The notes under the pieces: generated by a model
Seen by the model: only the letters and a program-made list of their open reading frames with translations
Told to the model about the DNA's origin: nothing
The model's database searches: none
Assembly (NCBI RefSeq): GCF_024502345.1
Contig: NZ_JALDNN010000001.1
Origin: Escherichia coli
Lineage (GTDB): Bacteria; Pseudomonadota; Gammaproteobacteria; Enterobacterales; Enterobacteriaceae
DNA length: 64,000 nucleotides
Direction: 5' to 3' (one strand)
Part shown: piece by piece, positions 6,431 through 53,316 of the stretch
Position numbering within the stretch: the first letter of the stretch is position 1
Layout: the number at the start of each line of letters is the position of its first letter
Translations under genes and position numbers: made by a program

Positions 6431-7285
6431 ATGGCAAAAAAAGCATCAAAATTCTTTCGTATCGGCGTTGAGGGTGACACCTGTGACGGGCGTGTCATCA
6501 GTGCGCAGGATATTCAGGAAATGGCCGAAACCTTTGACCCGCGAGTCTATGGTTGCCGCATTAACCTGGAACATCTGCGCGGCATCCTGCCTGACGGTAT
6601 TTTTAAGCGTTATGGCGATGTGGCCGAACTGAAGGCCGAAAAGATTGCCGATGATTCGGCGCTGAAAGGCAAATGGGCGCTGTTTGCGAAAATCACCCCG
6701 ACCGATGACCTTATCGCGATGAACAAGGCCGCGCAGAAGGTCTATACCTCAATGGAAATTCAGCCGAACTTTGCCAATACCGGCAAATGTTATCTGGTGG
6801 GTCTGGCCGTCACCGATGACCCGGCAAGCCTCGGCACGGAATACCTGGAATTCTGCCGCACGGCAAAACACAACCCCCTGAACCGCTTCAAATTAAGCCC
6901 TGAAAACCTGATTTCAGTGGCAACGCCTGTTGAGCTGGAATTTGAAGACCTGCCTGAAACCGTGTTCACCGCCCTGACCGAAAAGGTGAAATCCATTTTT
7001 GGCCGCAAACAGGCCAGCGATGACGCCCGTCTGAATGACGTGCATGAAGCGGTGACCGCTGTTGCTGAACATGTGCAGGAAAAACTGAGTGCCACTGAGC
7101 AGCGCCTCGCTGAGATGGAAACCGCCTTTTCCGCACTTAAGCAGGATGTGACTGACAGGGCGGATGAAACCAGCCAGGCATTCACCCGCCTGAAAAACAG
7201 CCTCGACCACACCGAAAGTCTGACCCAGCAGCGCCGCAGCAAGGCCACCGGCGGTGGCGGTGACGCCCTGATGACGAACTGCTGA
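6431..7285 (+). CDS. O: P2 gpO capsid scaffolding protein (284 aa)
   Basis: Start placed at MAKKASKFFRIGVEGDTC within ORF 6365-7285; divergent from P as in P2. Confidence 0.9.
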   Translation: MAKKASKFFRIGVEGDTCDGRVISAQDIQEMAETFDPRVYGCRINLEHLRGILPDGIFKRYGDVAELKAEKIADDSALKGKWALFAKITPTDDLIAMNKAAQKVYTSMEIQPNFANTGKCYLVGLAVTDDPASLGTEYLEFCRTAKHNPLNRFKLSPENLISVATPVELEFEDLPETVFTALTEKVKSIFGRKQASDDARLNDVHEAVTAVAEHVQEKLSATEQRLAEMETAFSALKQDVTDRADETSQAFTRLKNSLDHTESLTQQRRSKATGGGGDALMTNC

Positions 7286-8420: not shown

Positions 8421-9164
8421 ATGACGAGTCCCGCACAGCGCCACATGATGCGGGTCTCGGCAGCGATGACCGCGCAGCGGGAAGCCGCCCCGCTGCGACA
8501 TGCAACTGTCTATGAGCAGATGCTGGTTAAGCTCGCCGCAGACCAGCGCACACTGAAAGCGATTTATTCAAAAGAGCTGAAGGCCGCAAAAAAACGCGAA
8601 CTGCTGCCGTTCTGGTTGCCGTGGGTGAACGGCGTGCTGGAGCAGGGCAAAGGTGCACAGGATGACATTCTGATGACGGTCATGCTGTGGCGTCTGGATA
8701 CCGGCGATATTGCCGGTGCGCTGGAGATTGCCCGTTATGCCCTGAAATACGGCCTGGCCATGCCGGGGAAACACCGCCGTACCCCGCCGTACATGTTCAC
8801 CGAGGAGGTGGCGCTTGCTGCCATGCGCGCTCACGCTGCCGGTGAGTCTGTGGATACCCGCCTGCTGACGGACACCCTTGAACTGACCGCCACGGCTGAC
8901 ATGCCTGATGAAGTGCGCGCAAAGCTGCACAAAATCACCGGTCTGTTTCTGCGTGACGCTGGTGATGCCGCAGGTGCGCTGGCGCATCTGCAACGTGCGA
9001 CACAGCTCGACTGTCAGGCAGGCGTCAAAAAAGAGATTGAACGACTGGAGCGGGAGCTGAAACCGAAGCCGGAGCCGCAGCCCAAAGCGGTCACCCGCGC
9101 CCCGCGTAAGACACGGAGCGTGACACCGGCAAAACGTGGACGCCCGAAAAAGAAAGCCAGTTAA
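8421..9164 (+). CDS. M: P2 gpM terminase small/endonuclease subunit (247 aa)
   Basis: 247 aa, position after N; basic C-terminal tail. Confidence 0.9.
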   Translation: MTSPAQRHMMRVSAAMTAQREAAPLRHATVYEQMLVKLAADQRTLKAIYSKELKAAKKRELLPFWLPWVNGVLEQGKGAQDDILMTVMLWRLDTGDIAGALEIARYALKYGLAMPGKHRRTPPYMFTEEVALAAMRAHAAGESVDTRLLTDTLELTATADMPDEVRAKLHKITGLFLRDAGDAAGALAHLQRATQLDCQAGVKKEIERLERELKPKPEPQPKAVTRAPRKTRSVTPAKRGRPKKKAS

Positions 9165-12186: not shown

Positions 12187-12637
12187 GTTTAAGCGTTTTG
12201 AAGACCGGCTGACCGGACTTATTGAATCGCTGTCACCGTCAGGGCGTCGGCGACTGGCGGTAGATATTGCGAAGAAACTGCGCCAGCGCCAGCAGCAGCG
12301 AATTAAATTACAAAAAGCCCCGGATGGTACGCCGTATGTACCGAGAAAAAACCAGCCAGTGCGAAATAAGAAAGGCCGGATAAAGCGGGAAATGTTTGCG
12401 AAATTACGCACAAACCGATTTATGAAAGCAACAGGTAGCGAGAGTGCGGCTGTGGTGGAGTTTGCCAGCGGAGTACAACGAATTGCGAGAGTACATCAAT
12501 TAGGGCTTAGGGATAAGCCGGGGCGTAATAGTGCTGTGGTGGAATATCCTGTTCGTGAGTTATTAGGTTTTGACAAGGAATCTATACAATTGATAGAAAA
12601 GGAGTTATTAGTGATTCTATCGAAAGATGTTATATGA
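12179..12637 (+). CDS. S: P2 gpS tail completion protein (152 aa), 3' part AT-rich/mosaic
   Basis: MNEFKRFEDRLTGLIESLSPSGRRRL N-terminus; composition turns AT-rich in 3' third. Confidence 0.85.
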   Translation: MNEFKRFEDRLTGLIESLSPSGRRRLAVDIAKKLRQRQQQRIKLQKAPDGTPYVPRKNQPVRNKKGRIKREMFAKLRTNRFMKATGSESAAVVEFASGVQRIARVHQLGLRDKPGRNSAVVEYPVRELLGFDKESIQLIEKELLVILSKDVI

Positions 12638-13389
12638 GATGGGTGTTTGTGGATAAAAAATTTTCCATTTTGAGAAAAAGAGTAAAGCATTCTCAAAAGA
12701 AAGTTATGGATTGTATTATTGCTGACCATAATGCTGATGTATGTGTGTTATGCGGGAGTTCTGACGATATTACTCGTGAGCACATTATTCCTCAGTGGGC
12801 CTTTGAGTCAAATGCTGAAAAACTTTTAATTAATAAAAAGAATAATCAGTCAACTCATTACATCAAAGCCACTGTACCAGCATGCAGAGTGTGCAATTCT
12901 GATTTGCTGGGAGCGTTTGAGTATAACCTGAAGAAATTTCTTACGGAAAAGAGGGGCGATGAGTTAACAGATTATGAATATGATTGCATCATATGGTGGT
13001 TGCAATACATGGGCTTTAAGTTGCAATTAATGGATTTACGGACCCGCTTTCTCAGGTATAAAGGGGGGGATTATATCCCTTTCCTTGCAAACTTCCCGGT
13101 TGCAATGTTTTGGGGGAATGTCGATACGACACCGGAGGATGTCTTCAGGATTATAAGAAAATCGCGACGCAATCTGATGTCGAAATGGAAGGATAAAAAA
13201 CATAATTCTTTGATGGTTTTTGAAACATCAAACAAGAGTTTTCATTTCTTTCATAAGGTTGATGAATTTATTTTTATTGAAATGCCTCAGGTTAAGAAGG
13301 CGTTTTTCTTCTTTTTTAATAAAGAATTTGACAGCCATGATTTAGCTCATGAGGAGTGTATGAAGATTATAGAGAAGTGCTACAACTAA
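12634..13389 (+). CDS. Accessory protein with HNH-type nuclease motif (251 aa), inserted between S and V
   Basis: CVLCGSSDDITREHIIPQWAF ... ATVPACRVCNSDL resembles a CxxC...H...N...CxxC HNH core; strongly AT-rich; ATG overlaps S stop (ATGA). Confidence 0.6.
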   Translation: MRWVFVDKKFSILRKRVKHSQKKVMDCIIADHNADVCVLCGSSDDITREHIIPQWAFESNAEKLLINKKNNQSTHYIKATVPACRVCNSDLLGAFEYNLKKFLTEKRGDELTDYEYDCIIWWLQYMGFKLQLMDLRTRFLRYKGGDYIPFLANFPVAMFWGNVDTTPEDVFRIIRKSRRNLMSKWKDKKHNSLMVFETSNKSFHFFHKVDEFIFIEMPQVKKAFFFFFNKEFDSHDLAHEECMKIIEKCYN

Positions 13390-18214: not shown

Positions 18215-18742
18215 ATGCAGCATTTGATAAATATAATGGCAGGTAATCCAAAAACGGTTGAACAATATCAATTGACAAAGGACTTTGATGTTGTCTGGTT
18301 TTTTTCAGAAGATGGTAAGAACTGGTACGAAGAACAAAAGTATTTTGCTGATGACACGATAAAAATAGCGTACGACAAAGATAATATTATCCGCTATGTG
18401 GAAAAGGATGTGACAGCTATCAGACCGGATGGATTAAGTGTTGTTGAAGTGCCGGATATTACTGCTAACCGACGGGCGGACATTTCAGGGAACTGGATGT
18501 TTAAGGACGGTACAGTGATTAAACGAATTTATACGGCAGAGGAATTGCAGCAGCAGGCAGAAAATCGGAAAGCCAGACTTCTTGCAGATGCTGAATCCGT
18601 GATTTTGCCGCTGGAGCGCGCTGTCAGGCTGAATATGGCAACAGATGAGGAGCGCAGTCGACTGGAGGCATGGGAACGCTACAGTGTTCTGGTCAGTCGT
18701 GTGGATCCTGCAAATCCTGAATGGCCGGAAATGCCGCAATAA
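18215..18742 (+). CDS. G: P2 gpG tail fiber assembly chaperone (175 aa)
   Basis: 175 aa, immediately after H. Confidence 0.85.
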
Positions 18743-18864
18743 GTTGTATGAGCTCTGGTGTGAGCTTACATATCTATGGCACAGAGTAAAGCCTAATCTG
18801 AGAGTCCGCTCTGTGCCAGGAGGGGACGTTGCTCACCTATAAATATCCCAGCAAAACGGAACAC

Positions 18865-19673
18865 TCATCTTTGCAATCTTTTTATGTTTATATAAAGTTC
18901 CTCAATCAGCTCTTCCGAATTTTGACTGTAATGCAATGCCCGATGGCAATTCGGGCATAATGCAACACAATTGCTTATGGTGTCAGCACCAGATAAAGAA
19001 AGAGGTATCACATGATACACTTCGAGATATGGGATATCGCCATTTATTAAGAACGGTGTATTTTCACTACATCTTTCACAAACGCCCTTACTCCCTTGCA
19101 ATACACAAGATTTAACAGCAAGATCCCGAATATAAACCTTCTGAACTCTTTCTAATGTTCCAGTTTTTTATGTCCCTCGGACTCGTTCAAAGGAATTTAT
19201 ATTAGCTTACTGACCATTTTACTTAGAACACTCTCATCATTAGTGGCTCGAAAAGCACTGATGTATCTCCGTAGATGATAGGTTTCCAAAATTCAGCACT
19301 ATTAACACTAGGAACATTTATCATTACTCGCTCAGTTCTGTTCCCTGATGGTGCATCTTTTTTAGCAGTACTGTTCAAATGAGTCTGATACATACACATT
19401 TTTTGGGAAATATCGGAAGGGTAGTTTCCCACTAAAGAAAATTACATCATCAGGATGTATTTTTCTTTCCGCTATAGATGGTATATGTCTTCCGGTTGAT
19501 GATGAGGCCAAATACACAACGCCTTTGTTTACCCCGGAATCAATAAGTCGTCCAATGATATAATCGATGGCAATATTATAATCTTTGTTTCTATGCGCCA
19601 GTCATCAGGGCTCAAATATCAGGCCATATACCCCATCTTCTTCACCTACTAGGCACTCAACGTTCAGTTCCAT
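18865..19673 (-). pseudogene. mcrA-like HNH endonuclease gene (type IV 5-methylcytosine restriction family), disrupted by several frame changes
   Basis: Pieces in three frames: MELNVECLVGEEDGVYGLIFEP; AHRNKDYNIAIDYIIGRLIDSGVNKGVVYLASSSTGRHIPSIAERKIHPDDV; ...SGNRTERVMINVP...; intact C-terminal HNH core CERC...PYLEVYHVIPLSLSGADTISNCVALCPNCHRALH. These resemble McrA as recalled from memory. Confidence 0.6.
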
Positions 19674-19877
19674 ACCATTGTTATCAAGAGATTGCTTTGT
19701 ATTGCGCGGGAAACGTCTAGTTTGAATTAAGGAATTGTGAGGCGGAAGATGGGATTTAGGAATTTGGTTAGAGTTAGCAATGTTAATAAATGGGCCTAAT
19801 TTCACTTTAAATCAAATTCCTAAATATTAAAGAAAGCAAGCTGGCCTACATAAACAGCCAGCCTTGGATAATTCAAT

Positions 19878-21692
19878 TCACTTCTTACATAGAATGCTGG
19901 GTTTTACTCCGTACTCAACACATGCACTCAAAAATGTATTTATAAGCCAGATTAGCTGAACAGTATAAGGTTTGGCTGACTGATTTCTCTTGATGATTTC
20001 CACCTCATCGATTAACATTTTTTTTCTTAAAAATGGAGCAGCTAATATTAACTCCCTACTAGTTTTCGGACTCTCATTAATTTTGTCAAGAGCTAACTCA
20101 ATGTCATTCCTGGAAGTGTCAATTGGTCTAATTCTACTAATCTGCGTTTGTAAATATTTTGAAGACCATTCATTATCATATTTATCAAGGTAAAGTTCTT
20201 TTGGTGAATGTAATCTGCCAATATTTTTTAAAGCTTGACTTATAACTTCATGAAATTTACTGGCGCCATAGCTCTCTTTTTTAATATATTTAGAATGAAT
20301 AAACTTTATGGATGGATTTCCTGTCGTGATATCCAGCACAATATGATCGGCCCACTCATCATTCATATCATCACAAATTACAATAGCATCTTTATTTGAA
20401 TAGATATTCTCCACTCGTCTAAATAGCGATCTCACTGGAAATCTTTTAATATTTTCTGGATAAGATTGTTTGTCATCTTTCTCTTTTTCCGATCTGATTG
20501 TTGAAAAATCAAAGCTATCATCAAAAACGGACAGGAAAATATTCAAATTATTTAACATCGTTTTATCTTCAAAACACGAACGACCATGATAGCAATATTG
20601 GGGGGAATCGAAGGTTATAGTGAATGGCTTAAACTTGTTAATATATTTACTAAGCGACATTAACTGAGAACCATTTTCACTAATCATTATACCATCGAGA
20701 TATTTGGATACTATAGTCACAACCTTAGTATTGAATCTCAGACGACATTTGAATTTGAATCTTAAATTGGTTAGCGTTTCACCATCTAAGAAATATGATG
20801 ATTTAAATCCATTGAAAAATTTGTCAAGTTCAACAGAACTTAACGTCACCGTTCCATGAGGCACATTTTTTGTTAGTGTAAAAGTATGGGACGTGCCACG
20901 CACCATATCATCCAACTCGCTAAGATCTATAAAAATAGCTTTTGGCTTGACTTTTTTTGCTAATAATTCACTCAAAGTAATAGGGGAAGAGAAACCTGCC
21001 ATTAGCTTACTTGACAAAGAGGCTGTGTTAGATAATTCATTTACTGTAGCTATTGCCCATGAGCAGAAATTAAAAAAATCCACTTTTTTATCTTTGTAGC
21101 CTATTCGTGAAGTATTTGGTGTTAAAGTAAATATGTCATTTCCTGTCTTGACTCTAAATGTCCCTGGAATTGAACGTCCAGTCGTGTTAGGAGAAAGAAT
21201 GCCACTTAGATTTTTTGCTTCCACTGTTCTATTTCTTATCACTGAATCTGACAGTGACATATTCCTCATGCTAATTTTTTCATACTCAGGATTCAGCCTT
21301 CCATTAAAATTTGAAAATTTATCAAACTCAAAGTATTCTATGAACCTTTCCAACTCGCTTTCAATTGCATCAACATTTTTCTTCGAAATTATTAAAAAAT
21401 CCTGAACCTCCAAGATCATTAGATACGCATACTTGCTTTCTGAAATGCTAGTGCCTTGTAGAAATGAAGGCTCTTCTAGAACTTTAAAAGACACCAAAGA
21501 GTAAGTTAAATTCCCATTATCTACAACAACTTCAGATTTAATTTTATTTATAAGAAAGACACCATCTTTTATCGAGGATATGCTTCTAAATAGATTTTTT
21601 ATTTTATTTCTAGATAAAGGTTTTTTTATCTTAAAAAATTGTGCATTTTTTGATAAAATTAAATCATTGATACTGAAAATATATTTAGTCAC
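19878..21692 (-). CDS. Orphan AT-rich protein of unknown function (604 aa), prophage hotspot cargo
   Basis: Long uninterrupted ORF in very AT-rich DNA; GTG start 8 nt after AAGGA; no Walker A, no YxDD box, no HNH seen by eye; C-terminal segment AIVICDDMNDEWADHIVLD...IKFIHSKY could be a nuclease-like acidic/basic cluster. Confidence 0.6.
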   Translation of the reverse strand: MTKYIFSINDLILSKNAQFFKIKKPLSRNKIKNLFRSISSIKDGVFLINKIKSEVVVDNGNLTYSLVSFKVLEEPSFLQGTSISESKYAYLMILEVQDFLIISKKNVDAIESELERFIEYFEFDKFSNFNGRLNPEYEKISMRNMSLSDSVIRNRTVEAKNLSGILSPNTTGRSIPGTFRVKTGNDIFTLTPNTSRIGYKDKKVDFFNFCSWAIATVNELSNTASLSSKLMAGFSSPITLSELLAKKVKPKAIFIDLSELDDMVRGTSHTFTLTKNVPHGTVTLSSVELDKFFNGFKSSYFLDGETLTNLRFKFKCRLRFNTKVVTIVSKYLDGIMISENGSQLMSLSKYINKFKPFTITFDSPQYCYHGRSCFEDKTMLNNLNIFLSVFDDSFDFSTIRSEKEKDDKQSYPENIKRFPVRSLFRRVENIYSNKDAIVICDDMNDEWADHIVLDITTGNPSIKFIHSKYIKKESYGASKFHEVISQALKNIGRLHSPKELYLDKYDNEWSSKYLQTQISRIRPIDTSRNDIELALDKINESPKTSRELILAAPFLRKKMLIDEVEIIKRNQSAKPYTVQLIWLINTFLSACVEYGVKPSILCKK

Positions 21693-22214
21693 TTTGATGT
21701 CCTTATAATTAACATTTGATTATTCAAGAACAACTAGACAGCACTTCAGAGAAAATCAAATGGGAAATGGAATAGTTTAGATTCAGAAGATTACATTAAC
21801 ACGTAATATATTAAAAGTAATTATCTAAAACAATATTAATTATTGACTCGCGCAGTATTTAACTGCAAAAATTTGATTTAGGTCGTTTTTTTCTTACAAA
21901 GGCCAAGCCGCCAGGCCCGAAATGCCGCCTCTGCCGGTTAGCGCAATTGGGCTGACGCCCCGGGGCACTGGGGAGCCGAAACTTTAAGAAATCCGGAGAA
22001 TTGACCGTTATTTGAAATAAAAATGCCATTGTAACTTTCGTGTTTAGGCATAGAAAAATTTCCTTTTAACAAAACATAGTAATACTAGTAATGCGCCTTG
22101 TGCGGTGATCAAAATTGCGAACTTCCGCTCCTCGCTCAAAGCAGACTGTCAGATTTGATAGCGTTTTGGCTATGTAAATTGTCAGTCGGAAAATGAGTGA
22201 GTACAAACTAGGAC

Positions 22215-22240
22215 AGGCGGGCGAATTGCCCGCCTTTTCT
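22215..22240 (+). terminator. Rho-independent terminator upstream of FI
   Basis: ggcgggcg-aatt-gcccgcc hairpin followed by ttttct. Confidence 0.55.
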
Positions 22241-22338
22241 GTATCTGTTGTTTCATCCACTGACCAGACAGGTCAAATAGCGTCTCATGCTCTGCCCAAC
22301 GGAAAATAGTTGCACCCATTAACCACGGAGTTAAACGG

Positions 22339-23529
22339 ATGAGTGACTATCATCACGGCGTGCAGGTGCTGGAGATTAACGACGGCACCCGCGTCATTTC
22401 CACCGTATCCACTGCCATTGTCGGCATGGTCTGTACGGCCAGCGATGCAGATGCGGAAACCTTCCCCCTCAATAAACCGGTGTTGATTACCAATGTGCAG
22501 AGCGCAATTGCAAAGGCCGGTAAAAAAGGCACGCTGGCGGCATCGTTGCAGGCCATCGCTGACCAGTCAAAACCGGTCACCGTTGTCGTGCGCGTGGAAG
22601 ACGGCACCGGTGATGACGAGGAAACGAAACTCGCGCAGACCGTTTCCAATATCATCGGCACCACCGACGAAAACGGTCAGTACACCGGACTGAAAGCCCT
22701 GCTGGCGGCGGAGTCGGTAACCGGTGTTAAACCGCGTATTCTCGGCGTGCCGGGACTGGACACCAAAGAGGTGGCTGTTGCACTGGCATCAGTCTGTCAG
22801 AAGCTGCGCGCTTTCGGGTATATCAGCGCATGGGGCTGTAAAACTATTTCCGAGGTGAAAGCCTACCGCCAGAATTTCAGCCAGCGTGAGTTGATGGTCA
22901 TCTGGCCGGATTACCTCGCATGGGATACGGTCACCAGTACCACCGCCACCGCGTATGCCACCGCCCGTGCGCTGGGTCTGCGCGCTAAAATCGACCAGGA
23001 GCAGGGCTGGCATAAAACACTGTCCAACGTTGGGGTGAACGGTGTTACCGGCATCAGCGCATCTGTATTCTGGGATTTGCAGGAGTCCGGCACCGATGCT
23101 GACCTGCTGAATGAGTCAGGCGTCACAACGCTGATTCGCCGTGACGGTTTCCGCTTCTGGGGTAACCGTACCTGCTCTGATGACCCGCTGTTCCTCTTTG
23201 AAAACTACACCCGCACCGCGCAGGTACTGGCCGACACGATGGCTGAGGCGCACATGTGGGCGGTGGACAAGCCCATCACCGCAACGCTGATTCGCGACAT
23301 CGTTGACGGCATCAATGCCAAATTCCGTGAGCTGAAAACAAACGGTTATATCGTGGATGCGACCTGCTGGTTCAGCGAAGAATCCAACGATGCGGAAACC
23401 CTCAAGGCCGGAAAACTGTATATCGACTATGACTATACACCGGTGCCTCCTCTCGAAAACCTGACCCTGCGCCAGCGTATTACCGATAAATACCTGGCGA
23501 ATCTGGTCACCCCGGTTAACAGCAATTAA
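22339..23529 (+). CDS. FI: P2 gpFI tail sheath protein (396 aa)
   Basis: 396 aa, size and position. Confidence 0.9.
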   Translation: MSDYHHGVQVLEINDGTRVISTVSTAIVGMVCTASDADAETFPLNKPVLITNVQSAIAKAGKKGTLAASLQAIADQSKPVTVVVRVEDGTGDDEETKLAQTVSNIIGTTDENGQYTGLKALLAAESVTGVKPRILGVPGLDTKEVAVALASVCQKLRAFGYISAWGCKTISEVKAYRQNFSQRELMVIWPDYLAWDTVTSTTATAYATARALGLRAKIDQEQGWHKTLSNVGVNGVTGISASVFWDLQESGTDADLLNESGVTTLIRRDGFRFWGNRTCSDDPLFLFENYTRTAQVLADTMAEAHMWAVDKPITATLIRDIVDGINAKFRELKTNGYIVDATCWFSEESNDAETLKAGKLYIDYDYTPVPPLENLTLRQRITDKYLANLVTPVNSN

Positions 23530-30575: not shown

Positions 30576-30677
30576 AATTCTCTCGTTCTGATGACAGGTC
30601 AGATCCGCTTCACCTGATGAAGCGGTTAGGGGAGTGCCCCCACTTTAAGGGCGGGCATTGTAGCGCAATCGGCGGGT

Positions 30678-30974
30678 TTAGCTCCAGTGTAAATGTCTGG
30701 TGGCGTCCTGGTTTTGGTTAAGGATACGAATGACGATAATTTCCCCTGGTGATTGCAGGAAATAAATTACGTGGCGTTCAAAAGGAAGAACAAAAATACC
30801 TTCGCCTAATTCAGGTCTGGGCGTACCTATATTATTGTTACTCAGAATCTGGAGAACGTCTGAAAGATGTTCCACATATCTGTCGGCTTGTGGTTCGCCG
30901 AAATGGTGATAACTGTAATACCAGATGCCTTCTAAATCCTCATTGGCTTTTGGCATGAGTTTAATAATACGCAC
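30678..30974 (-). CDS. ParE/RelE-family type II toxin (98 aa)
   Basis: About 100 aa, directly downstream of and 1 nt separated from a small RHH antitoxin-like gene; ParE-like sequence character. Confidence 0.6.
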   Translation of the reverse strand: MRIIKLMPKANEDLEGIWYYSYHHFGEPQADRYVEHLSDVLQILSNNNIGTPRPELGEGIFVLPFERHVIYFLQSPGEIIVIRILNQNQDATRHLHWS

Positions 30975-30975
30975 A

Positions 30976-31227
30976 TTATTTCCTTATCCCTGCTTTCACC
31001 TTCCGTAAAAACGCGTCCTTTTCCCACGGCTGAGCTTCACCACTACTCAACCCTTCTGCAAGCATGCCACGTAACGCTTGCAGGCGAGACTCTGCTTGCT
31101 TTTCTCGAAGTAAGCGCAGTGACTCACGGATCACTTCGCTTTGGGTGCGATAGTCGCCGGATTCAATTAAGGACTCGATAAATTCACGCAACTCATCGCC
31201 GAGATCAACCGTCATCGTTCTGGCCAT
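30976..31227 (-). CDS. ParD-like ribbon-helix-helix antitoxin (83 aa)
   Basis: 83 aa, N-terminal RHH-like segment, acidic C-terminal half; precedes the toxin. Confidence 0.6.
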   Translation of the reverse strand: MARTMTVDLGDELREFIESLIESGDYRTQSEVIRESLRLLREKQAESRLQALRGMLAEGLSSGEAQPWEKDAFLRKVKAGIRK

Positions 31228-31470
31228 GTTTATGCTCTCCTGTAAGTAAAAATCTTACATCAGTGTATGTCATAAACCGGATAGCGTCACGAAAAGTATT
31301 AGAAGATATTTTGGCAGATGAACATGTTCAGGAGGATAAGCATGGAGATGTTAAACAAAGAAAGCACAATGAGTATTCATCAGTGTCCACTATTTTAATG
31401 GCGCAGGTAAATAATTAAGCGTTATTTGGAAATAAAGCCGGACGCCAACAACCCACGCCCGGCATCGTAA

Positions 31471-44189: not shown

Positions 44190-44849
44190 ATGAGCGAACA
44201 AATCACGTTTGCCACCAGCGATTTTGCCAGTAACCCGGAACCACGTTGCCCCTGCATTCTGCTGCTGGATGTTTCTGGCTCGATGAGCGGCAGACCTATT
44301 AATGAACTTAACGCCGGATTGGTTACCTTTCGTGATGAACTGCTTGCTGATCCGCTGGCTTTAAAAAGAGTGGAACTCGGCATTGTGACGTTCGGCCCGG
44401 TGCATGTGGAACAACCCTTTACCAGCGCCGCTAACTTTTTCCCGCCCATCCTGTTTGCCCTGGGGGATACGCCTATGGGGGCCGCCATTACCAAAGCCCT
44501 GGATATGGTAGAGGAGCGGAAACGTGAGTACCGCGCAAATGGTATTTCGTATTATCGCCCGTGGATTTTCCTGATCACCGATGGCGCTCCAACCGATGAG
44601 TGGCAGGCTGCCGCCAACAAAGTGTTTCAGGGGGAAGAAGATAAGAAGTTTGCCTTCTTTTCCATCGGTGTTCAGGGGGCGGATATGAAGACGCTGGCAC
44701 AAATCAGCGTTCGTCAGCCTTTGCCACTGCAGGGATTACAATTCCGTGAACTGTTTAGCTGGTTATCCAGTTCGCTGCGTTCGGTTTCCCGCTCCACGCC
44801 GGGAACGGAAGTTGTGCTGGAAGCGCCAAAAGGCTGGACGTCAGTGTGA
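44190..44849 (+). CDS. yegL: von Willebrand factor A domain protein YegL (219 aa)
   Basis: 219 aa; vWA MIDAS-like DxSxS motif [11 protein letters not shown]. Confidence 0.9.
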
Positions 44850-45606
44850 GCTGGCGTCTGGTTTATGCATCCGCTGTTGGAACGTCGCACATTAGCGCTG
44901 ATTTACCTTGTCAGGATGCCTGCCAGATGCAGGTTGCCTGGCTAAATGACCAGCAGCCATTACTGGTGATGTTCCTTGCTGATGGCGCAGTAGCGTTTCG
45001 CAGGGAGGAGAAGGCGCGAAGCTCGCCGTCAATGAAGCGATGACGTTTATGGTGCAAAAAGTACAGGACGGTGAATTGGGGCTTAATGATGTCCTCGCCA
45101 CAAATATGGTACTGACCATTCGTCAACGACTTTTTGCCGAGGCAGAAGCCAAAGCATTAGCAGTTCGCGATTTTGCCTGCACGTTTCTGGGATTGATTTC
45201 ATCGGCTAACGGCACATTGATTATGCAAATTGGCGACGGCGGTGTAGTGGTGGATTTTGGTCACGGTCTGCAATTACCGCTTACGCCGATGGTGGGTGAA
45301 TATGCCAATATGACGCATTTCATTACCGATGAAGATGCCGTTTCCAGACTGGAAACTTTCACCAGCACTGAGCGTGTGCATAAAGTTGCAGCATTTACGG
45401 ATGGTATCCAGCGACTGGCGTTAAATATGTTGGATAATTCTCCGCATGTGCCTTTCTTTACCCCTTTTTTCAATGGACTGGCGGCAGCAACGCAGGAACA
45501 GCTCGATTTATTACCTGAATTGTTAAAGCAGTTTTTGTCCAGCCCGGCGGTAAACGAGCGTACCGATGATGATAAAACGTTGGCACTGGCGCTGTGGTTA
45601 CCATGA
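44846..45606 (+). pseudogene. yegK: PP2C-like phosphatase gene yegK/pphC, split by a frameshift into 65-aa and 188-aa ORFs
   Basis: ORFs 44846-45043 and 45040-45606 lie in different frames; together they span 761 nt, not a multiple of 3. Confidence 0.6.
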
Positions 45607-49998: not shown

Positions 49999-52900
49999 TC
50001 AGTTAATCGCGAAATAACTGCTATTCACCAGCAAATCCAGCGGTTGGGAATCGGCAATCACATCACCATAAATCAGATCGACGCCGATGCCAGAAAGCGT
50101 ATCCATCACTAAGGGTAAAACGACTGGCCCGGCGATGGTTTTCATCCCGAGTCGCTGAGCGTGCCCCTGAATAATCGTAATCAGCATCTCATCCATCAAA
50201 TTACCCTGCACGTTGGCGCATAACTCACCATCAAGTAGCAGGTAATCTGCCATATTCGCTTTCAGCGAGTTGAAGATTTGCAGATCGCGGCCCACCTGGC
50301 TGAGCACTATCCGACATCCCGCCAGCCGCAGTTTTTGCACGCTTACTGCGTGATCTAAAATCGCTTCAGCCGGAATAATCAGATGTAATAACCGTGGTGG
50401 TAGAGGGCTATTTTCCAGCTGCTCAAGCAGTTCATTCACCAGCGTGGCGCTACTCAAACCGGCAACGGAAAGAGGGAGGGCGATGCTTATGCCTTTACTG
50501 GCAACCGCTTTTGCGGCCTGCTGGAAAAATTCGTGGAATACCCGTCGGTCAAGAGCATGGCTAAGTGCCGGATCGCTGAAGCTACGACGAAATTTTTGTT
50601 CATCAATAATCTCGCCTTCGCAACTCCAGAGCTTAAGTGAAATCAGCCACAAATTACGCGCTTCCGGGATCCGCGGCGAAGCGACACCGTGGGCGATCAT
50701 CATCAACTGATTCTCTTTAATCATCCGCCACTGTTCATCAAGCGACATCGCCGCCCGTTCGCTATGTGCGGCAGCTTGCTGTGGTTCGTAAATCGTCACC
50801 CGGCCCCGGCCACCATTTTTGGAGGCATAACAGGCGATATCAGCCTGCGACATCACTTCAGCCGCCTGATGATTGTTGTCATCAATCAAGGTAATCCCGG
50901 CACTGGCACCTACCCGATGTACACGTCCTTCCCAGATAAAGTGATAGTCATTCACGGCACTGATAATGCGTGTAGCGATAAAACGCGCGCTTTCAACATT
51001 ACAGTCTGGTAGCAGCAGACCAAATTCATCCCCACCGAGTCGCGCCAGCACGTCGCTGGAACGCAGCATACTCAGCATTAACGACGCCAGTTCGCGCAGC
51101 AAAGCGTCACCCGCCGCATGCCCGGCGCTGTCATTCACCGCTTTAAAGCGATCAAGATCGATAAACACCAGGGCATGTCGCTGATGTGTACTGTTTACCG
51201 TTTGCAGCAGGATACGCAGTTGTTTCTCAAAACTGGCGCGATTGGCGAGATGCGTCAGTGCATCATGGGAGGCGCTGTAGCTCAGCTGGCGCAGCATTTT
51301 GCGTGATTCGGTAACGTCCTGAATCACCAGAACCGAACCAATATTGCTGCCGTCCAGAGTACTTAACGGCGTAATACTGTAATGCACGTCGTAGCTGCCG
51401 CCGCTCCGGCAGTGCAACACCACATCTTGTTCAATCGCGGAACGTGAGGTGTCGGCACTGTAAATGTTCTCCATCAGGGGACCATTGTCGCCAAAGGTAA
51501 TATGCAACACCGTCAGGAGCGGAACACCTAATGCTTCTTCCTGCGTCCAGCCGCTCATCTTCTCCGCCACTGGATTCATAAAGGTAATTTTCATTGCCAT
51601 ATCAATACAGACCACGGCTTCGCCGATGGAGTCCAGCGTAATGTGCAGGCGCTCTTTTTCCTAAAACAATGCCTCGTTAAGCTGTTTCACTTCGGTCATA
51701 TCCATATTGATGCCGAGGAGACGTTCGACTTCGCCTTCTTTATTCAGTACCCGGTTGGCGAGGGCGCGGATATGGCGAATACCGTCTTTTACGGTAATGC
51801 GAAATTCCAGTTTAAAGGGCGAGCGTGATTGCAACGAATCACGAATCACTTTTTCGGCATGCTGGCGATCTTCCGGCAGCACGCACTCGTACCACACCTG
51901 CCAGTTCGGTTTGATATGTGGAGGAATTTCATACAGCTCGAACATCCGCTTATCCCAGCTAAAAACATTCGGTTTCAACTCCCACTCCCAGATGCCAATC
52001 CCGCCCGCTTCGTTAGACAGCGTGATGCGCTCCATCAGTTGCTGATTGACCTGTTCGGTGCGTTTTAGCTCGTTAATGTCTTCAATCTGAGCGATAAAAT
52101 AGAGCGGCGTGCCATCCGTGTGGCGCACCAGTGAGACGGCAAGCAACGCCCAGACAACATCGCCATTGCGGTTGTAGTAGCGTTTTTCCATTGAATAGGT
52201 GTTTATTTCACCGCTTATCAGCTTTTCAACCTGTTGGAGATCTTTATTGAGATCCTCCGGCCAGGTCAGTTGCTGAAAGGTGAGTCCGCGCAGCTCTTCC
52301 TGACTGTACCCGAGAAACTGGCAGAGCGCTTTGTTGGTTTGCAGCCATTGTCCCTCGGTGCCCACTAACGCCATACCGATAGCGGAATATTCCATCGCGT
52401 TCCGAAAGCGGGTTTCGCTTTCGGAAATGTGTTTGCGTTCCGCACGAAAGGCATACATCACCATGGTCATGATGTTGGCGGGCAGCAGGATCAGCAAAAA
52501 CGGTAGCCACGGCATATGGCTCATCAGGTACGTACGCGGCGTAGCAAGCAGGGAGGGATCCGCGGCCATCATCAGCGACACCATCATCACCGTGGTAAGG
52601 AAGATCAAAAAGGCTTCCATTCGTGGCAGGCGCACGGCGCTCCACATCAACAGCACAATAATGAAAGTAAAAGGCCACGGCAGATACAGCATCGAAAGCC
52701 AGCTTAACGTCAGTGTGATGGCTAACGTGAGCAGCGACTCAAAAAGCAACCGTGGGTTGCGATGGCGCAGCAGATAGTGTGGTTTAAATAACAATCCCAG
52801 CGGCACCAGTGCCAGAGCGCCGATGGATTCTGACAGTACCCATATCAAAAATGCCCTGAGAGGATCGTCTCCGGGCGTCAGCAGGACAACCAGACCCCCC

Positions 52901-53316
52901 CCCAACAGAGGCGGAACAATGGCGCTGCCGAGTGCCAGACGCAGCCAGTCAGCCAGATTTTGCAAGGGGTTATACCACGGCAGCAATTTACGTAGCAGCA
53001 CTGCCCCGACCACGGCTTCAACCATATTGATGGTCGTCCAGGTCATGTTCAGCGAGCTGGTGGAAAAAAGCAGGATGGATGCGGCGATATTTCCCAGCGA
53101 ACAGCTCAGCGCAATTCCCGGCCACATGCGCCCGGCATGGCGATAAAACGCCACCATCATGATGGACGTCGGGAACCACAGTGGGGCGAGTTGGGTGCCA
53201 AACTGCGAAAGCTCAAGCGAGAAAAGGGTAAAGATAAACGAGACTAAACCTAAACTGACCAGGTGAAGCAGCGGGTGGGGCAGGGCAATTAATACATGCT
53301 GTGATTGTTTGCTCAT
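49999..53316 (-). pseudogene. dgcE: Diguanylate cyclase DgcE (YegE) reading frame, interrupted by one in-frame amber (TAG) codon
   Basis: Minus-strand ORFs 51661-53316 (551 aa: membrane N-terminus and PAS) and 49999-51615 (538 aa: PAS, GGDEF with RLGGDEFGLLL, EAL) are in the same frame; only stop between them is TAG at 51661-51663; 551+1+15+538 = 1105 codons. Confidence 0.7.

Follow-up and report, generated by a model that had tools for sequence, protein, structure and literature searches.

The window analyzed here, a 64,000 nt stretch of Escherichia coli contig NZ_JALDNN010000001.1, carries at 18865-19697 on the minus strand the remnant of a type IV restriction gene of the EcoKMcrA family, hereafter psi-mcrA. 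Judged by sequence comparison, it is very probably a non-functional, long-dead pseudogene, carried as a passenger in a cassette beside a selected gene that matches the PADLOC profile PDC-S71. Intact EcoKMcrA reads fully modified YCGR sites, containing 5-methylcytosine (5mC) or 5-hydroxymethylcytosine (5hmC), through its NEco domain without base flipping, and its C-terminal HNH domain dimerizes and cuts DNA using a divalent metal. The original prediction took the locus for a real McrA-family pseudogene in a hotspot of a P2-like prophage, and this was borne out by the shared lesions, a ratio of nonsynonymous to synonymous change (dN/dS) of 1.26, the homology and the location.

Identity of the gene remnant

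McrA-like pieces are present in all three minus-strand frames, as the original prediction had noticed, and together span the whole McrA protein. The frame-repaired translation matches the EcoKMcrA structure 6GHC (E=4.3e-105; query residues 2-268, tagged chain residues 20-287), the NEco domain alone in 6R64 (E=3.6e-49) and the PADLOC mREase_IV profile PDLC03656 (E=5.7e-110; positions 9-277 of 277, 269/277), and the homology extends across both the NEco sensor and the HNH domain. At the DNA level, identity with K-12 mcrA amounts to 68% over 808 nt (61% at the amino acid (aa) level after frame repair). The intact P0002 gene (L008:1116-1949) is closer, with 90% nt identity and, with correct frame repair, 82% aa identity. 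The nearest intact relatives in a search of 5.8 billion proteins were the 277-residue proteins P0001-P0004, which share about 78-79% identity with the initial frame repair, and none of the 63 McrA-like matches was an intact ortholog above 82% aa identity. K-12-type mcrA occurs in 333 of 5,426 complete E. coli genomes, the psi-mcrA lineage in 8 of them.

Alignment to McrA allowed each indel to be placed and confirmed that the fragments are McrA-like. It also revised the extent of the remnant, given earlier as 18865-19673: the 3' limit stands, while the 5' end actually reaches 19697, and 19673 is the ATG of codon 9. The remnant and its lesions, located by codon-level alignment to the intact P0002, P0005 and K-12 mcrA genes, are as follows:

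18865..19697, minus strand: psi-mcrA, full-length remnant; the ancestral frame of this type IV restriction gene (EcoKMcrA family) had 277 codons and a stop; N-terminal NEco 5mC-reading domain, C-terminal HNH nuclease
19695..19697, minus strand: lost start codon, ATG to AAG (AAA in the Providencia copy)
19602..19610, minus strand: S30P (CCC), W31 TGG to TGA (19607-19605) and G32 to TGA (19604-19602)
19446, minus strand: frameshift 1, +1, inserted T at codons 84/85
19245..19246, minus strand: frameshift 2, 1-nt deletion, codon 151
19197..19199, minus strand: in-frame stop, TAA at codon 167, where relatives have AAA or AAT
19163..19164, minus strand: frameshift 3, 1-nt deletion, codon 179
19015..19017, minus strand: H228Y, CAT to TAT, active-site metal ligand

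Instead of opening with a start codon and running uninterrupted for about 277 codons, psi-mcrA begins with AAG, meets stops at codons 31, 32 and 167, and changes frame at codons 84/85, 151 and 179. At least three frame changes had been predicted, and there are exactly three; the AAG start, the three stops, S30P and H228Y are additional to what had been described. The start-codon loss is the sole lesion clearly common to the E. coli lineage and to that of a Providencia copy (below), and the second TGA, at codon 32, is restricted to the window and one other assembly (L073) among the 19 copies compared.

Two of the substitutions fall on residues of known function. In EcoKMcrA, the two modified-cytosine (methyl) pockets have S30 and W31 at their bases (PMC7145662), with N119 completing the proximal pocket and T121 the distal. 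N119 and T121 are kept in psi-mcrA, S30 is replaced by Pro and W31 by a stop. The S30P change would be expected to impair the methyl pocket. The HNH catalytic set departs from the functional one at H228 alone, as both CxxC pairs, the general base H229, N243, H252 and H256 are retained. H228 is an active-site metal ligand, and the H228A variant of EcoKMcrA gave no cleavage products in vitro (PMC6182155). The C-terminal HNH core, described as intact in the original prediction, is indeed uninterrupted, but because this ligand is Tyr it is not functionally intact. From its sequence, psi-mcrA is expected to confer no restriction of 5mC- or 5hmC-modified DNA in the YCGR context.

The frame breaks are shared by independent assemblies

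The locus was compared with 18 other assemblies, comprising eight RefSeq complete genomes, which carry it at 99.4-99.7% identity, and 10 further loci retrieved via the exact PDC-S71 protein. Two of the latter repeat RefSeq genomes, leaving about 16 distinct genomes, from different laboratories and in several genomic contexts. The 19 copies of the cassette (window included) align without a gap, so that no indel separates any two of them and all three frameshifts are common to all; the L073 copy, which shares the second TGA, differs from the window by one base. The same disabling lesions are thus found in independent assemblies.

An alternative is that indel errors in sequencing or assembly produced the frame breaks and that the gene is really intact; the original prediction had raised assembly errors, citing further breaks in yegK and dgcE. 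One of these exists as described: pphC/yegK (44846-45606) has a single-base deletion near 44989 relative to NCTC9064 (CAGG to CAG), and it counts in favor of error. It is, however, the single indel in 10 kb against NCTC9064, the closest complete genome, and being the only one it is probably a real frameshift. The break in dgcE (minus strand, 49999-53316) turned out to be no indel at all but a nonsense substitution at Q552, CAG to TAG, at 51661-51663. The start-codon loss, the three stops, S30P and H228Y are likewise substitutions. Given the gap-free alignment of 18 other assemblies, the substitutions among the lesions, the neutral evolution described below (dN/dS 1.26) and the rate of one indel per 10 kb, assembly error is rejected as having almost no probability, and the frame breaks of psi-mcrA are evidently real.

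Age and mode of decay

A copy of the cassette in Providencia rettgeri (L017, SRIZ01000046.1) is 92.3% identical to that of the window over 3.34 kb and has the same ends. Its psi-mcrA carries lesions of its own: a -1 at codon 55, a -3 at 86/87, a -7 at 220-222, a TAG at L255, a +1 near the end, and H256Y. Only the change of ATG to AAR and the stop at W31 are shared with the window, and the two W31 stop codons differ (TGA versus TAG). Both lineages have independently acquired a stop at W31 and a His to Tyr change at a metal ligand (H228Y and H256Y).

Between the window and Providencia, dN/dS is 1.26 for psi-mcrA (dS 0.094, dN 0.118, a divergence close to the dS of PDC-S71, 0.133) as against 0.20 for PDC-S71, and it is 0.14-0.26 between intact McrA genes. 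Differences at the three codon positions number 37/29/17 in psi-mcrA and 21/15/47 in PDC-S71. The identity profile of psi-mcrA in this comparison equals that of non-coding DNA, and its coding sequence gives no sign of purifying selection. Within the 19 copies, segregating sites number 8 in the 833 bp of psi-mcrA compared to 1 in the 1815 bp of PDC-S71 (Fisher p=6e-4), and the density of single-nucleotide polymorphisms (SNPs) in psi-mcrA is the highest in the cassette. These patterns indicate that psi-mcrA evolves neutrally. Because the Providencia copy shares few lesions with the window, and because dN/dS is 1.26 in one gene and 0.20 in the other, the gene is concluded to have been dead before the cassette spread.

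The 5' end suggests how it died. Homology to the intact genes sets in 2 nt ahead of the start codon, whereas intact relatives share about 147 nt upstream with each other, and psi-mcrA is without that promoter and ribosome-binding region. We infer that loss of this 5' region, with promoter, ribosome-binding site and start codon, inactivated mcrA no later than its joining to PDC-S71. Psi-mcrA would then have drifted, decaying independently in each lineage while hitch-hiking. Translation in the old frame would now stop at codon 31, with three frameshifts and another stop to follow, and two residues needed for function are replaced, by S30P (methyl pocket) and H228Y (catalytic metal). PDC-S71 would be the selected gene of the cassette and psi-mcrA passenger DNA.

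Residual coding potential and alternative explanations

One part of the remnant is still an open reading frame (ORF):

18865..19101, minus strand: residual 78-codon ORF with a TTG start, covering the HNH domain

The sequence quoted in the original prediction (CERC...PYLEVYHVIPLSLSGADTISNCVALCPNCHRALH) is this ORF. The Prokaryotic Genome Annotation Pipeline (PGAP) annotates merely its last 51 codons (18865-19020, GTG start) as an HNH endonuclease, without the first CxxC pair. Both the 78-codon ORF and the 51-codon call are annotation relics rather than a conserved gene.

Several observations weigh against a long-dead passenger gene. The 78-codon ORF retains both CxxC pairs, H229, N243, H252 and H256. 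The ATG at codon 9 means that loss of the start codon alone need not have inactivated the gene. An ancestral two-gene state, with intact mcrA next to PDC-S71, is inferred, and no intact McrA adjoining PDC-S71 was found, the closest contexts having either the decayed Providencia copy or no HNH gene. Finally, the remnant of about 830 bp has been kept at full length over about 11% divergence in two lineages, with indels of only 1-7 nt; it is longer-lived than the usual bacterial deletion bias suggests, and part of it may have a non-coding role. On that explanation the coding function is dead but some of the DNA is kept, for example as a 3' untranslated region or terminator of PDC-S71 or as a spacer holding the 3' motif, the recombination end of the cassette, next to PDC-S71. 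The 3' tail and the class A motif (described below), which are common to intact mcrA genes, do form the exact cassette boundary, and a deletion removing the motif would strand PDC-S71. Against this, no Rfam match was found, the hairpin in the spacer upstream of psi-mcrA folds no better than shuffled sequence (z=-0.8), psi-mcrA has no sub-region whose conservation clearly exceeds that of non-coding DNA, SNP density is at its highest here, and retention may just mean that there has been too little time for deletion. We consider a non-coding role improbable.

Retained protein function is a still poorer explanation. Expression of psi-mcrA as one protein, or as separate NEco and HNH halves, by way of programmed frameshifts, read-through of stops or internal starts has hardly any likelihood. 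The three frame changes, with a net shift of -1, are bridgeable in principle and codon 9 offers an internal ATG, but three frameshifts and three stop read-throughs would be required in a sequence that lacks both its start codon and the native ribosome-binding site. The search for slippery or structured elements gave none, Providencia conserves none of the E. coli lesions and has a set of its own, and the sequence evolves neutrally. It is also very doubtful that the 78-codon ORF is expressed as a stand-alone mini-HNH nuclease, perhaps partnering PDC-S71. The ORF is open, with both zinc motifs and the residues listed above, and PGAP calls part of it an HNH protein. However, its metal ligand H228 is Tyr, and H228A gave no cleavage products in vitro (PMC6182155); it begins with TTG, and the sequence just upstream has no AGGAG-like ribosome-binding site. 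In Providencia the ORF has been destroyed (7-nt deletion, L255 TAG and +1 insertion) while PDC-S71 is intact, the region bears SNPs and diverges at the non-coding rate, and PDC-S71 homologs elsewhere lack an HNH neighbor. The reading of psi-mcrA as a dead passenger is retained here.

The cassette and PDC-S71

The two genes lie in a cassette within the prophage:

18804-22152: cassette of 3.35 kb holding both genes, bounded by 24-nt palindromic motifs
19698..19877, minus strand: spacer separating psi-mcrA from PDC-S71, with no relation to the promoter and ribosome-binding region native to mcrA
19878..21692, minus strand: intact PDC-S71-matching gene, 604 aa, upstream of psi-mcrA
18215..18742, plus strand: P2 gene G, tail fiber assembly, left flank of the Z/fun hotspot
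22339..23529, plus strand: P2 gene FI, tail sheath, right flank of the Z/fun hotspot

The match of the 604-aa protein to the PADLOC PDC-S71 profile is full-length (E=1.1e-218; residues 7-604 aligned with positions 3-589 of the 589 in the profile). The protein lacks any Pfam domain, and its AlphaFold model contains a part, presumed to be the C-terminal region, that resembles PD-(D/E)xK nucleases, with residues 440-468 invariant, among them the conserved D441, D442, E446 and K468. A PD-(D/E)xK nuclease domain is therefore probable from the model, and the protein is a candidate anti-phage protein. It is 99.9-100% identical in the eight RefSeq genomes and 94% identical (aa) to the Providencia copy, and is under purifying selection. 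The exact protein has entries in 699 blocks of the searched index. A literature search returned no paper mentioning PDC-S71.

The G+C content of the cassette is 32-38%, compared to 54-55% in the prophage. The same cassette is found in E. coli chromosomal contexts, namely an integrase/dynamin island and a site beside paoD, each time followed by a DUF6602 gene. It is absent from the phage and plasmid collections searched, which held just K-12-type mcrA and, on a Klebsiella plasmid, a 415-nt HNH fragment. The spacer contains an inverted repeat with 16-nt arms (19754-19769 and 19810-19825), and the hairpin at 19754-19825 is the one for which folding gave z=-0.8. An Rfam scan of 18600-22400 at E<=1 returned nothing beyond a chance match to RAGATH-32, at 17.5 bits where the threshold is 41.8, and promoter and terminator scans gave counts not above those of shuffled sequence. 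About 89 nt directly upstream of psi-mcrA (19699-19787) are 84-89% identical to unannotated intergenic DNA of Pantoea megaplasmids, with two such places in pSOD02, and about 21899-21963, upstream of PDC-S71, matches Pantoea and Erwinia plasmids. These Pantoea-like pieces may be small mobile or regulatory elements.

The Z/fun site and the boundary motifs

The cassette lies between genes G and FI, which is the Z region of P2, and the earlier placement of the locus in a P2-like prophage was correct. The flanks are 94-95% identical to the 'proviral Z-region' records of P2-EC58 and P2-EC30, up to 18827 on the left and from 22121/22132 on the right, and the insertion is bounded by the inverted repeats annotated in those records, as expected of Z/fun cargo. 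Nilsson et al. 2004 (Mol Biol Evol 21:1) reportedly deals with the Z/fun-region cargo of P2-like coliphages. Rousset et al. 2022 treats the other P2 hotspot, and the Z/fun locus is merely cited there. The ends of the cassette are marked by two motifs:

18804..18827: class A motif, 24-nt and palindromic, GTCCGCTC-N8-GAGGGGAC, with one mismatch; cassette 3' end
22123..22146: class B motif, degenerate partner, TTCCGCTC-CTCGCTCA-AAGCAGAC; cassette 5' end, inverted relative to class A

At each end, homology to the P2 backbone and homology to the chromosomal islands overlap exactly on the 24-nt motif. The 62-nt 3' tail of psi-mcrA, which ends in the class A motif, is also found in its intact mcrA relatives.

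The class A consensus is GTCCGCTC-(C/A)TGGCACA-GAGCGGAC and class B has the variant loop TGAGCGAG; both mark gene-cassette boundaries. Where cassettes abut, a conserved 66-nt composite is found, in which an 18-nt spacer (GATATCACTGAGCTGAAG) joins class A to class B. Composite or motif sites include L002:3713-3778, 7074-7097 and 8826-8849, L023:3126-5310, L008:1986-2051 and L007:1150-1215. In the loci examined there are 21 distinct copies of the composite, three of them in a row in a viral contig (L023), where they separate single genes in either orientation. The genes adjoining the motifs are varied and not solely defense-related. Folding of the composite gives a long hairpin (dG -19.4, z -3.2), but covariation supports neither a two-hairpin nor a one-long-hairpin pairing at the junction, with at most one compensatory pair, no better than shuffles.

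The exact class A motif occurs in 42 viral contigs, about 33 of which place it about 65 nt after P2 gene G, and none of the 42 carries PDC-S71 or McrA. Among 100,044 species genomes it was found in 28 stretches, nearly all from Enterobacterales and one of them beside P2 G; a high-copy repeat of the repetitive extragenic palindromic (REP) type was rejected on the strength of these few exact copies. The motifs and the composite bound this cassette and lie between adjacent single-gene cassettes of Enterobacterales islands and phages. We regard as rather unlikely the idea that they are the recombination ends of a cassette-exchange system moving single accessory or defense genes between P2 Z/fun and chromosomal islands, with the psi-mcrA fossil being kept as its 3' tail supplies the mobile end of PDC-S71.

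Other variable segments in the window

Between the P2 morphogenesis genes and gene V is a 251-aa ORF (12634-13389, plus strand) that matches only PHROG 10503, a family without an assigned function; strain 730V1 has a different, opposite-strand gene of 357 aa at this position. It looks like another variable cargo site of the prophage. The yegQ/yegP interval contains a segment of about 770 bp (30667-31436) that is absent from strain 730V1. It includes a ParD-family antitoxin gene (30976-31227; TIGR02606, 86 bits) and, beside it, a 98-codon ParE-like ORF (30678-30974) with no family match.

Implications

Psi-mcrA is a genuine pseudogene, old and of an ordinary kind, of a restriction enzyme already well known, and nothing known of McrA is changed by it. 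In annotation, a single mcrA pseudogene should be recorded in place of the 51-aa PGAP 'HNH endonuclease' or hypothetical fragments, and for cloning or restriction work the strain should not count as McrA-positive. The locus offers a small, clean case of a defense gene that was dead before its cassette spread and that has drifted beside a selected neighbor in two genera. It provides an internal neutral clock for the PDC-S71 cassette, and illustrates the turnover of restriction genes in prophage hotspots.

Comparison with known systems

EcoKMcrA of K-12 (6GHC, 6R64) has the same layout of NEco and HNH domains over 277 codons and is likewise prophage-borne, its gene being, as the original prediction stated, on e14, at the pinE/icd' end of that element. 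Psi-mcrA differs in having no start codon or native promoter, in its three stops and three frameshifts, and in S30P and H228Y. It also belongs to another lineage, and resides in a cassette of the P2 Z/fun site, not at the pinE/icd end of e14.

The closest relatives are P0001-P0004 and P0005 (metagenomic and Klebsiella-type; loci L008 and L007), with which psi-mcrA has the 62-nt 3' tail and motif in common. These genes are intact, they evolve under purifying selection (dN/dS 0.26) and retain the shared upstream promoter and ribosome-binding region of about 147 nt, and their neighbors are reverse transcriptase plus SLATT or TIR-caspase defense-type genes, not PDC-S71. The P. rettgeri locus has the same arrangement as the window, PDC-S71 followed by psi-mcrA, with the same cassette ends, a lost start and a stop at W31, but all of its indels and its other stop are distinct. 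Its cassette lies in an integrase island (L017:136-9184) beside smpB, together with PvuRts1I-like/SRA, HNH (HNH_2) and Mrr-like nuclease-domain genes.

As a site, the locus resembles P2-EC58 (AJ512683) and P2-EC30 (AJ512676), in which cargo is inserted between G and FI, opposite in orientation to the late genes, and is flanked by left and right inverted repeats annotated in GenBank, the left one starting at the same motif; the cargo genes themselves are other than those of the window. ScoMcrA (5ZMM, E=1.8e-8) and the SRA-HNH and EVE-HNH enzymes resemble psi-mcrA in the C-terminal HNH domain only. Their sensor domains are different, NEco being specific to the EcoKMcrA family.
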